Shown here: positions 14,919 through 58,338 of the stretch, piece by piece
Position numbering within the stretch: the first letter of the stretch is position 1
Layout: every line of letters begins with the position of its first letter
Source of the DNA: a virus
Virus record (IMG/VR): IMGVR_UViG_3300031975_001631
Reading direction: 5' to 3' (one strand)
Length of the DNA stretch: 64,000 nt
Notes under the pieces: model-generated
The model's input: only the letters and a program-made list of their open reading frames with translations
The model's database searches: none
What the model was told of the DNA's origin: nothing
Position numbers and translations under genes: made by a program

Positions 14919-14947
14919 ATTATACACAAAAAAAGAGGACTCGTCAA
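14919..14947 (-). promoter_or_regulatory. Sigma70-like promoter
   Basis: TTGACG-N17-TATAAT with TG upstream of the -10. Confidence 0.8.
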
Positions 14948-14958
14948 GAGTCCTCTTT
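14928..14958 (-). terminator. Rho-independent terminator
   Basis: AAGAGGACTC-TTGAC-GAGTCCTCTT hairpin continuing into a T run. Confidence 0.8.
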
Positions 14959-14977: not shown

Positions 14978-15121
14978 TCAGCTTTTTGATGCGAACTTAC
15001 GCTCAACTTTAATACCACGATACATTAATTCGTGATTTTGACGAGCAGTTTGCTCCTCAATTACTTTTGCTTTGTACTGGTCTGCGTCATACTTGACGCC
15101 ACGGTATGTGATTGTAGACAT
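14978..15121 (-). CDS. DUF4278-like peptide (47 aa)
   Basis: Manual translation MSTITYRGVKYDADQYKAKVIEEQTARQNHELMYRGIKVERKFASKS with twin YRG motifs; AGGAG RBS. Confidence 0.8.
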   Translation of the reverse strand: MSTITYRGVKYDADQYKAKVIEEQTARQNHELMYRGIKVERKFASKS

Positions 15122-15182
15122 CGGTTTACTCCTGAAGTTGGGTGAAAATTAACCTTCTCAGCTTTCGCTGGATCCGTTTTTT

Positions 15183-15369
15183 CCCGTTCCTTCAGTCGTG
15201 TGCGTCCCAATACCACCGACACTCTGGTGCTGAGTCCTTAAGGGTCTCAACCAACTCAACCTTAACTTGATTGCTAAGGTTTTGATTATTCTCAATCTTC
15301 AGCATGATAGCATCAGTTTGAGTACAGGTGAGTGTTGTGTAGAATAATACTTCTAACATGGGATGAACG
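15183..15369 (-). ncRNA. Glutamine-riboswitch-like aptamer 2, split by an embedded ORF
   Basis: 5' half CGUUCAUCCC (15369-15360) and 3' half GGGACGCACACGACUGAAGGAACGGG (15208-15183); CGUUC/GAACG and UCCCA/UGGGA pairings. Confidence 0.6.
15192..15359 (-). CDS. 55-aa ORF nested in the riboswitch-like element
   Basis: Manual translation MLEVLFYTTLTCTQTDAIMLKIENNQNLSNQVKVELVETLKDSAPECRWYWDAHD. Confidence 0.65.
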   Translation of the reverse strand: MLEVLFYTTLTCTQTDAIMLKIENNQNLSNQVKVELVETLKDSAPECRWYWDAHD

Positions 15370-15372
15370 ACT

Positions 15373-15415
15373 CCGTTCCGCGACTTACTTGCGTCCAGAT
15401 TGCTCTGGATGAACG
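15373..15415 (-). ncRNA. Glutamine-riboswitch-like aptamer 1 (Downstream-peptide/glnA type)
   Basis: CGUUCA-UCCAGA-GCAA-UCUGGA-CGCAAGUAAGUCGCGGAACGG; P1 CGUUC/GAACG; starts at the predicted TSS; upstream of a DUF4278-like gene. Confidence 0.7.
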
Positions 15416-15423
15416 ACAGGTCT

Positions 15424-15453
15424 ATTATAGACCACTATCATTATTTATGTCAA
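15424..15453 (-). promoter_or_regulatory. Sigma70-like promoter driving the riboswitch leader
   Basis: TTGACA-N18-TATAAT. Confidence 0.8.
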
Positions 15454-15463
15454 CCCTATAGGG

Positions 15464-15493
15464 CAAAAAAAACCCGGAGATTTTTTCCCCGGA
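15464..15493 (-). terminator. Rho-independent terminator
   Basis: CCGGGGA-AAAAA-TCTCCGG followed by G and T8. Confidence 0.75.
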
Positions 15494-42714: not shown

Positions 42715-42825
42715 AAAGTAAGACCATCAGGGAATGGTGGAGTTACTATTTTCCTACCACCCTCAGGTAGGAATATTAAAGACGCTTTTATACACCCTAG
42801 AGGTCTTGGTTTGCGGGGTGTTGTT
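42715..42825 (-). ncRNA. PhotoRC-II-like structured psbA leader
   Basis: AAGACC/GGUCUU closing helix, UUCCUACC/GGUAGGAA and ACCAU/AUGGU hairpins with complementary loops (AGGG/CCCU). Confidence 0.7.
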
Positions 42826-42852
42826 GACCGTTACATTTCGTAACTGTGTCTT

Positions 42853-57541: not shown

Positions 57542-58191
57542 AAAAAAGTAACCTCAGTAAATCTAGTTGTTTGTTTAAAGAAGTCGTCTACAATTGTTTG
57601 ACCATGAAACCATTTTCCAGGAAACACGACCCCACAATTAAATCGATCTAAGATACACAAATCTTCCTTGAACTGTTTATTGGTTTTCCAAGGACTTGTA
57701 TGTTCGGTGTCCCTTTTACTAGAATAGCTCTTTGCTTTTGTATTGCAAGGAGTATACAATGAAGTGCCAGATTTCATATGATGAGTTGGATTCAAAAAGA
57801 TAATAAAATTTAATTGACCATCAGTGTGAGGATGCCAGTGTCTCTCTTTTGGAACATCATTAATCAATCTAAACTGATTGATCGTATGGGGTGCAGTTTG
57901 TGGATCTACTTCTAGATTATAATTATTTGCTATCGATTCTAACAAATATTTTCTGTGCAAATCCCACCTATTATCCAATAGCATTTGACCATCCATAAAG
58001 TCAATGCCATTGAGAGATCCCTTACAAGATTTATGAGTTACAATACTATTAACAGAGTTAAGGTATTGATAAATTTTTTCAGGGTACTTATATATATCGT
58101 CAATGAATAAAATCTCAGAATCTTTCCAAGGAACATTCACAATATTCCAGGATTCATTAAGTTGAAAATCTTTATTACTGAAAAAATTCAT
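57538..58191 (-). CDS. 2OG-Fe(II) oxygenase-like (DUF6445-like)
   Basis: IDDIYKYPE, PHTD, IFLN, GTSLY, FN..VVF.G..FHG. Confidence 0.7.
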   Translation of the reverse strand: MNFFSNKDFQLNESWNIVNVPWKDSEILFIDDIYKYPEKIYQYLNSVNSIVTHKSCKGSLNGIDFMDGQMLLDNRWDLHRKYLLESIANNYNLEVDPQTAPHTINQFRLINDVPKERHWHPHTDGQLNFIIFLNPTHHMKSGTSLYTPCNTKAKSYSSKRDTEHTSPWKTNKQFKEDLCILDRFNCGVVFPGKWFHGQTIVDDFFKQTTRFTEVTFL

Positions 58192-58262
58192 GGGAGATAC
58201 AAGGATCGAACTTGTGACAATCTCGGTGTAAACGAGGTGCTCTACCTCTGAGCTAATCTCCC
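58191..58262 (-). tRNA. tRNA-Val(UAC)
   Basis: GGGAGAT/ATCTCCC acceptor stem, TAGCTCAG D-arm, TTTACAC anticodon loop, GTTCGA T-loop; no encoded CCA. Confidence 0.92.
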
Positions 58263-58265
58263 AAA

Positions 58266-58338
58266 CGACTCAGGTTGGGGTCGAACCAACGACCGACTGC
58301 TTAGAAGGCAGTTGCTCTGTCCACTGAGCTACTGAGTC
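58266..58338 (-). tRNA. tRNA-Arg(UCU)
   Basis: GACTCAG/CTGAGTC acceptor stem, ACTGC-CTTCTAA-GCAGT anticodon arm, GGTTCGA. Confidence 0.93.

Follow-up and report, generated by a model that had tools for sequence, protein, structure and literature searches.

Riboswitch aptamers are usually treated as compact, non-coding domains. We describe here a leader of the glutamine-riboswitch class in which a conserved protein gene lies inside the aptamer, five of its codons and its stop codon doubling as predicted sensor nucleotides. The element runs from position 15417 to position 15183 on the minus strand of a 64,000-nucleotide (nt) stretch of viral DNA, hereafter the window, which is part of a 94.8-kb IMG/VR virus record (IMGVR_UViG_3300031975_001631). 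To judge from the PhotoRC-II RNA that it carries and from its closest relatives, S-RIM44, Syn1 and ACG-2014h, the source of the window is a T4-like cyanophage.

The type-1 glutamine riboswitch motif, or glnA RNA (RF01739 in Rfam), was first described in PMC2864571 and is represented by the gifB/IF17 leader of Synechocystis, for which an ON model has been proposed, glutamine melting a helix between the 3′ end of the aptamer and the ribosome site (PMC6212724). A long-range G-C pair, G23-C60, forms on ligand binding in the type-1 aptamer (PMC6212724), and loop E lies in the junction of the solved glutamine aptamer (PMC12510878). The hosts of these phages use the type-2 riboswitch, and DUF4278 is the usual downstream partner of glutamine riboswitches (PMC6212724). 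A survey of the field counted only two glutamine aptamers in cyanophage genomes and judged phages to be rare users of riboswitches (PMC5473149), and cyanophage genome papers give single glnA hits from Rfam (PMC9964418). A literature search, whose coverage excluded two primary aptamer papers so that an earlier mention is possible, returned no description of a gene inside a glutamine aptamer or of interlocked cores. The gene-in-aptamer arrangement, proposed for this locus in a preliminary description, is real and conserved, and its fold is better called nested than tandem.

Fold of the leader

Four strands of the leader, in the order CGUUC, GAACG, CGUUC and GAACG, can pair in two ways. In the reading that we prefer, with a probability of about 60%, the first pairs with the last and the second with the third, and the leader would be one type-1 (glnA-class) glutamine aptamer, nested in layout, whose helix P3 carries a second, inner junction holding an open reading frame (ORF1). 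The outer core would comprise helix P1, which closes a three-way junction (15415-11 with 15189-85), the P2 hairpin directly 3′ of CGUUCA, a loop E assembled from AAGUA (15390-86) and GAAG (15193-90), and P3 (AGUCG/CGACU). Inside P3, an extra three-way junction, atypical for the glnA family, would extend one arm as the hairpin GAACG-GAGU-CGUUC and the other as helix P2′ (UCCCA/UGGGA), closing around ORF1. Much of the preliminary description is retained here: its first unit, CGUUCA-[UCCAGA GCAA UCUGGA]-CGCAAGUAAGUCGCGGAACGG, is present at 15415-15373, GUCGUUCAUCC does occur twice, UCCCA (15363-15359) and UGGGA (15209-15205) flank about 150 nt, and the cross-pairing of the identical CGUUC/GAACG strands to which it drew attention turns out to be central to the structure. 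What the evidence disfavours is its division of the leader into two aptamers side by side, the middle strands being better placed in the inner hairpin.

The anatomy, conservation, covariation and coding signal of the leader were computed, the relatives comprising 20 divergent named phages, 80 IMG/VR loci collected via the protein and 119 via the invariant junction string. The layout was found in all 20 named cyanophages and in 205 parsed loci; in each of the 20, CGUUCA precedes the AUG by 10 nt and GGAACG follows closely on the stop. A blastn search with the region matched 419 phage records, whereas the exact junction string occurred in only six contigs among about 185,000 species genomes; several of these are contigs of phage-like size in metagenome-assembled genomes, and we therefore read them as phage DNA, not as a host element.

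The claim of a glutamine-riboswitch-class leader is supported. Natural relatives that lack the gene score 38-44 bits on RF01739 (gathering score 35), and they do so only in the nested alignment, in which P1 is made from the first CGUUC and the last GAACG, CGCAAGUA stands before P3 and GAAGGAACG after it, AGU/ACU is P3, and the whole second unit is a 38-48-nt insert in P3. At the gathering threshold Rfam returned nothing at the riboswitch locus of the window. The Infernal search proposed for the first unit did give hits, all of them sub-threshold (RF01739, 23.7 bits against 35; RF01704, 20.3 bits against 33), and permissive scans of the window and 20 relatives matched unit 1 only, again sub-threshold, at 20-30 bits on the two families (RF01704 in the relatives, 24-30). 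The window falls below the RF01739 threshold because its 143-nt insert cannot be spanned by a short model, and a model built from no-ORF variants alone (R1) likewise could not span it. A nested covariance model built on seven relatives, four without and three with an ORF, and not on the window itself, aligned to the window over the whole of 15417-15183 at 91.2 bits (E about 6e-23), with 23 of 23 pairs canonical and the ORF interior as an insert; a default-filter search of the entire window with this model found one copy only. Together with the recurrence of the layout in relatives, the match to this model puts the arrangement well outside chance.

The class motifs point the same way. Of the two loop-E strands, AGUA is confined to 'unit 1' and GAAG to 'unit 2', so that neither unit of a tandem arrangement has a complete type-1 core; the two strands stand opposite each other only in the nested reading, and CGCAAGUA agrees with the RF01739 consensus CGGAAGUA. 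A true tandem riboswitch, in which two side-by-side aptamers each have their own P1, ORF1 lies in the P2 loop of the second and a ribosome melts only that second aptamer, would also leave P3 without a role. It draws on the resemblance of each unit alone to the type-2 consensus CGUUCA-hairpin-CGCA...GGAACGG, on the partial scores of unit 1, on a no-ORF relative (L131) whose unit 2 scores 34.0 bits on RF01704, just over the gathering score of 33, and on tandem glnA RNAs already reported (PMC2864571). Its weaknesses are the split loop E, an RF01739 threshold passed only in the nested alignment, and the pairing data.

Pairs were counted in an alignment (A5) of 100 elements with 98 distinct sequences. 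Paired cells amounted to 98.0%, against 93.3% with shuffled and 33-55% with slid partners, nine pairs vary on both sides, and none of 500 shuffles reached any of the measures. Pairing is complete (100%) in P3, in the inner hairpin and in P2′. The check for covariation in P2 was borne out for P2 and P2′ alike, all four counted pairs of each varying on both sides. P2 reaches a mean of 6.2 contiguous base pairs (bp), against 3.2 with shuffled partners, and the first five pairs of P2′ are 91-100% paired across 169 unique elements, with several pair types per position (UCCUAUG/CAUAGGA, GAUUAUGGU/ACCAUAAUC and CCCCA/UGGGG among them); in natural versions without the gene P2′ is a plain CCC-UUCG-GGG hairpin. 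P3 varies as CGGCU, CGAUU and GGUCG, all of which keep a wobble, and shows no double change.

The two topologies are told apart most directly by five loci (L015, L016, L018, L020 and L065) whose middle strands read CAACG...CGUUG while the outer strands are unchanged. In the nested fold this is a clean GC-to-CG change with no unpaired cell; in the tandem fold three more cells become unpaired at each of two P1 pairs, so that both tandem P1 helices mispair. The bare-helix nearest-neighbour energy is -24.6 kcal/mol for the nested and -16.2 kcal/mol for the tandem fold, whose helices are thus 8 kcal/mol weaker. Taken with the motifs, these results make a true tandem riboswitch unlikely in our judgement. 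Under constraint the minimum free energies (MFE) lie closer, at -81.0 and -76.4 kcal/mol, and this difference of only 4.6 kcal/mol is one of the points that suit a kinetic switch with two functional folds, tandem-like first, during transcription and the first round of ORF1 translation, and nested later. The four P1-type strands are interchangeable, both Rfam families match partially, and transcription reaches the last GAACG only about 170 nt after unit 1, an order in which a tandem-like P1 can form first, under this explanation as under the tandem one. Since the CAACG/CGUUG variants show that at least one lineage can do without the tandem P1 pairs, we rate such a switch no higher than the tandem.

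The core of the phage element departs from the type-1 consensus at one pair of positions. We take the long-range pair to involve the bracketed nucleotides of CG[G]AAGUA and GGAACG[C]; the phage element has CG[C]AAGUA and GGAACG[G], with C and G swapped, which would keep the pair if this assignment holds. The C, the sub-threshold scores of the window, an extreme sequence invariance that would also suit a protein-binding site, and an invariant internal loop in the long-form spacer downstream could all be accommodated if the fold were conserved and glutamine sensing lost, leaving an element for mRNA stability, processing or protein binding that couples two small genes. We consider this improbable: all other highly conserved positions of the RF01739 consensus are kept, the C is accompanied by the G after GGAACG that the type-2 consensus has, the no-ORF homologues pass the family threshold, and DUF4278, which usually accompanies the family, is the gene downstream (PMC6212724).

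Several points weigh against the nested topology nonetheless. The four P1-type strands are nearly invariant, so that the choice rests on one compensatory change, wobble-only variants of P3, motif logic and the Rfam alignments. The compensatory change itself is represented by three distinct rows and probably by one or two events; the pair counts are biased towards the nested model, to which alignment A5 was fitted; the window fails the Rfam gathering scores; and the assignment of nucleotides to loop E and to the long-range pair is in part tentative.

Genes enclosed by the aptamer

The 55-codon ORF proposed in the preliminary description is in place at 15359-15192, its AUG overlapping the 5′ strand of the closing helix, its last codons (W-D-A-H-D) coinciding, as claimed, with 3′ core nucleotides, and its UGA (15194-15192) lying in GACUGAAGGAACG. 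To judge from its coding signals, ORF1 is a real small-protein gene. With the 55-amino-acid (aa) product as query, tblastn matched 315 phage records, none with a coverage below 80%, at identities down to about 35-40%. In 186 of 195 insert-bearing elements an uninterrupted frame links the AUG of the 5′ strand with the stop codon that lies within CGACU(G/A)A, and length changes are of whole codons (53-56 aa). Among 133 distinct aligned ORF1 sequences of 53-56 codons, conserved residues of the interior are written in several synonymous codons (codon entropy 0.7-2.2 bits; an invariant Glu is GAG in 57%), whereas the last five codons, W-D-A-N/H-D, show zero synonymous variation, GAC, GCA, AAC/CAC and GAC each standing at 100%. 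The interior is accordingly under selection for protein, and the tail under selection for protein and RNA together.

AlphaFold2, run with 57 sequences, models the product as three helices (pLDDT 80), for which Foldseek found no match in the PDB at E 0.001 or better. The protein matches no Pfam family and is assigned to phrog_504, a PHROG of unknown function whose atlas matches are its own clusters only. An untranslated ORF1, the 150-nt insert being a variable RNA domain, could appeal to the missing Pfam family and to a long Shine-Dalgarno (SD) spacing of about 10 nt; set against its conservation across 315 records, its codon usage, whole-codon length changes, open frame and confident helical model, and against an SD-like GAG that follows the presence of the ORF, we regard it as most improbable. 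The inner hairpin has this GAG(N) as its loop in 157 of 161 elements with an ORF, against none of eight no-ORF elements, which is why GGAG (15374-15371) is best read as the likely SD of ORF1. In RNA runs, only small shares of the sequence words were present. Contigs of relatives assembled from metatranscriptomes span the element together with ORF1, and among them is one abundant variant without an ORF; transcript ends, strand and level cannot be read from such contigs, and the coverage is thus no proof of expression.

The 169 unique elements differ in gene content: 130 hold one gene, 31 hold two, seven hold none and one holds a gene only in the first hairpin. The gene of the first hairpin (ORF0; 66 aa, phrog_6471) was found in L085, L092, L093, L098 and 28 further IMG/VR loci. 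Of these 32 elements, 29 place its AUG at offset 4-5 of the 5′ strand and 24 place its stop within the 3′ strand; the stop covaries with the bases before the AUG (UCUUAUG/CAUAAGA, UCCUAUG/CAUAGGA and UCUCAUG/CAUGAGA). Profile comparison shows the proteins of the two nested genes to be distant paralogues, with a probability of 82-92% (E 1e-5 to 7e-7) and both cysteines aligned.

We tentatively suggest, and would not be surprised to be wrong, that the P2-type hairpin is a reusable gene-holding module, used once or twice per leader, in which the start-codon region of a small two-Cys protein gene pairs with its stop-codon region. The leader would then be a three-way device in which the glutamine level of the host and ribosome traffic jointly select among two or three small phage proteins, the two-Cys proteins or the IF17-like one, and a stop codon in loop E resets the sensor and couples the genes. 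If this is true, it would be the first natural riboswitch with a translated ligand-binding domain.

A few individual loci vary in other ways. The S-RIM2 element (L083) looks like a deletion remnant of the first-hairpin gene. In L085 and L127, of the S-CAM1 type, ORF1 ends (…WYWSDHE) about 30 nt short of the 3′ core strand; the tail appears to be duplicated, and the protein C-terminus is thereby separated from the RNA strand. L176 and L215 carry a 60-100-nt insert between the middle GAACG and CGUUC, that is, in the inner hairpin loop. The CAACG/CGUUG lineage has a GUUC loop in place of GAG, and its ORF1, without GGAG, keeps an intact frame and is 91-93% identical to the protein of the window.

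Downstream gene and proposed switch

The second gene of the unit, ORF2, was predicted to be DUF4278-like, and its product matches PF14105 in Pfam at 28.2 bits (cut-off 25.3; E 2.5e-6). Short marine DUF4278 homologues do not have the C-terminal residues that IF17 needs to bind glutamine synthetase (PMC6212724). Between the aptamer and ORF2 the window has a long-form spacer, present in 16 of 167 unique spacers, in which an inner GNRA hairpin that covaries, CAGC-GAAA-GCUG (15170-15159), is flanked by the invariant ACGGAUC and AGAAGGUU. The GAAGG of this spacer repeats the loop-E strand of the aptamer.

CUGAAG, which spans the end of P3, the UGA of ORF1 and the loop-E strand, is complementary to CUUCAG at the SD of ORF2, and in the unconstrained MFE structure of the leader this helix is formed instead of the outer P1 and P3, while the two hairpins and the ORF-closing helix are kept. 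The stop codon of ORF1 covaries with its partner base: a UAA is always opposite U (58 unique elements), a UGA is opposite C (46) or U (29), and the A/C combination never occurs. When pairs with different stops were drawn independently from a tree of the ORF interior, the partner changed in the same direction in 5.9 cases and in the opposite direction in none (sign test, p about 0.03). The helix is a candidate for masking the ribosome site of ORF2. Another CUGAAG, inside ORF1 at 15297-15302 on the minus strand, could also pair with CUUCAG.

From this anatomy we infer glutamine binding, the direction of switching and the effects of ribosomes. Without glutamine, CUGAAG would pair with CUUCAG and mask the SD of ORF2; with glutamine, the outer P1, loop E and P3 would form, consume CUGAAG and release the SD, giving an ON switch that, by analogy, mirrors the model for host gifB. 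Both start signals of ORF1 are embedded in the structure, the SD within the inner hairpin loop and the AUG within the closing helix, and initiation on ORF1 should accordingly be hindered while the fold is closed. A ribosome that does translate ORF1 would have to unwind P2′, the inner junction strand, P3, loop E and the outer P1, so that, by geometry, folding of the sensor and translation of ORF1 would be mutually exclusive on one molecule at one time. It would then stop at the UGA inside CUGAAG with the outer P1 in its footprint, which could reset the sensor and briefly expose the SD of ORF2. A switch with two inputs, glutamine and ribosome transit, is plausible because it follows from this geometry; a strict two-input logic gate is a further step, which we would infer from the same layout. 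Two features speak against so simple a scheme: the masking helix comprises just 6 bp, of which one position covaries, and translation of ORF1 would expose the SD of ORF2 too, so that a clean glutamine-only ON switch is not guaranteed.

Where codons and sensor share nucleotides, ligand sensing and translation must compete for the same bases, and sensors meant to accommodate large inserts could be modelled on this natural layout. ORF2 is related to the factor that inactivates glutamine synthetase in the host. With this unit the phage may be able to sense and tune the nitrogen status of its host. More than 300 phage records carry a layout that standard scans miss, and phage riboswitches are therefore probably undercounted.

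Genomic setting and comparison with known systems

All genes around the riboswitch locus lie on the minus strand, and the order of the unit is terminator-like hairpin, promoter, RNA element with ORF1, structured spacer, SD of ORF2, ORF2 and terminator (Table 1). The terminator-like hairpin, as its position and sequence indicate, closes the preceding gene and isolates the riboswitch unit. The TTGACA/TATAAT promoter of the preliminary description is present as described. The palindrome centred on its -10 box has counterparts in relatives (L101-L219), where the inverted repeat has a mean stem of 6.4 bp against 4.9 bp when shuffled and differs in sequence (TGGTA/TACCA, GGGGTA/TACCC); a dimeric protein could use the palindrome as an operator or, if transcription starts further upstream, it could form a 5′ RNA hairpin. 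ATAAATA in the promoter spacer, which resembles the T4-type late promoter TATAAATA, is found in 40 of 160 unique upstream regions, so that the unit may be transcribed both early and late. No NtcA box (GTA-N8-TAC) was visible by eye near the promoter. A second near-consensus promoter, TTGACG-17-TATAAT (11/12; 14919-14947, minus strand), overlaps the terminator of the unit and would serve the next gene downstream. Elsewhere on the minus strand of the window are the PhotoRC-II RNA (42738-42833; 72.4 bits, gathering score 39) and two adjoining tRNA genes (58191-58338; 69.3 and 64.8 bits).

Table 1. Positions of the parts of the riboswitch unit, in order of transcription
Feature	Position	Strand	Basis
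Terminator-like hairpin with U-run	15465..15492	-	Read from sequence, aligned as terminator stem
Sigma-70-type promoter, TTGACA-18-TATAAT	15424..15453	-	12/12 consensus matches
ATAAATA in promoter spacer	15442..15448	-	Seen by eye
Perfect palindrome GGTCTATAATAGACC, centre at -10 box	15419..15433	-	Covarying inverted repeat in relatives
Outer P1, 5′ strand CGUUC	15411..15415	-	P1 in the RF01739 alignment of no-ORF relatives
P2 hairpin UCCAGA-GCAA-UCUGGA	15394..15409	-	Covariation
Junction CGCAAGUA with proposed 5′ loop-E strand (AGUA)	15386..15393	-	Invariant in 169 unique elements
P3, 5′ strand AGUCG	15381..15385	-	Partner CGACU, 15198-15194
Inner hairpin GAACG-GAGU-CGUUC	15365..15378	-	GC-to-CG compensatory change in relatives
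P2′, 5′ strand UCCCA, overlapping A of ORF1 AUG	15359..15363	-	100% paired
ORF1, 55 aa, small two-Cys family phrog_504, in P2′ loop	15192..15359	-	tblastn, codon analysis, PHROG match
P2′, 3′ strand UGGGA, the Trp codon and start of Asp codon of ORF1	15205..15209	-	Covariation, codon analysis
Inner junction strand CGCACA	15199..15204	-	CGCA(A/C)A in 167/169 unique elements
P3, 3′ strand CGACU	15194..15198	-	Pairs with AGUCG
CUGAAG: proposed 3′ loop-E strand (GAAG), UGA of ORF1 (15194-15192) and candidate masking strand for ORF2 SD	15190..15195	-	Covariation, MFE
Outer P1, 3′ strand GAACG	15185..15189	-	Rfam alignment of relatives, nested model
Long-form spacer stem GGG...CCC	15140..15184	-	Folded in MFE structure
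CUUCAG (15137-15132) overlapping ORF2 SD AGGAG (15133-15129)	15129..15137	-	Complementary to CUGAAG, paired in MFE
ORF2, 47-aa DUF4278 (IF17-like), phrog_5049	14978..15121	-	Pfam, PHROG match
Intrinsic terminator ending the unit	14932..14958	-	11-bp stem and U-run

Among described systems, the element is closest to the type-1 riboswitch of the gifB leader (PMC6212724), with which it shares CGUUC/GAACG strands in P1, a P2 hairpin after CGUUCA, AAGUA and GAAG strands on either side of P3, a downstream DUF4278 gene and a proposed translational control in which the 3′ segment of the aptamer pairs with the ribosome-binding site. It differs in that its P3 would not be a simple hairpin and would carry a second aptamer-like three-way junction, one arm of which encloses a protein gene; in the stop codon within the loop-E strand; in the C and G that replace the consensus G and C in CG[C]AAGUA and GGAACG[G]; in its occurrence in phages; and in the sub-threshold score of the window. 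With the type-2 riboswitch (Downstream-peptide, RF01704) of marine Synechococcus and Prochlorococcus it has in common the CGUUCA-hairpin-CGCA...GGAACGG motif and small downstream genes for DUF4278 or other peptides. Type 2, however, has no loop E, P3 or nested gene, the phage units singly fall below or barely at the RF01704 threshold, and by a definition of type 2 as at least 33 bits on RF01704 with a CGUUC/GGAACG pseudoknot the window, at 20.3 bits, lies outside it.

Tandem riboswitches, such as those for glycine, the tandem glnA RNAs (PMC2864571) and SAM-II/SAM-V, resemble the phage element in having two sensor-like cores per leader and repeated sequence elements. Their cores stand side by side, whereas those of the phage appear interlocked, one inside a helix of the other and with a gene inside. 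In trp and his leader attenuation, and in riboswitch platforms that depend on an upstream ORF, it is where a ribosome stands on a short upstream ORF that selects which helices form, much as ORF1 could do here; there, however, the ORF encodes a disposable sensor peptide within the expression platform, while ORF1 is a conserved gene inside the predicted ligand-binding domain. Group I and group II introns likewise accommodate a complete gene in the terminal loop of a helix of a structured RNA, the helix closing over more than 150 nt. The intron ORFs are genes for mobility or maturase proteins, placed outside the strands of the catalytic core, whereas the start and end of the phage ORF1 overlap the core strands of what is probably a metabolite sensor.

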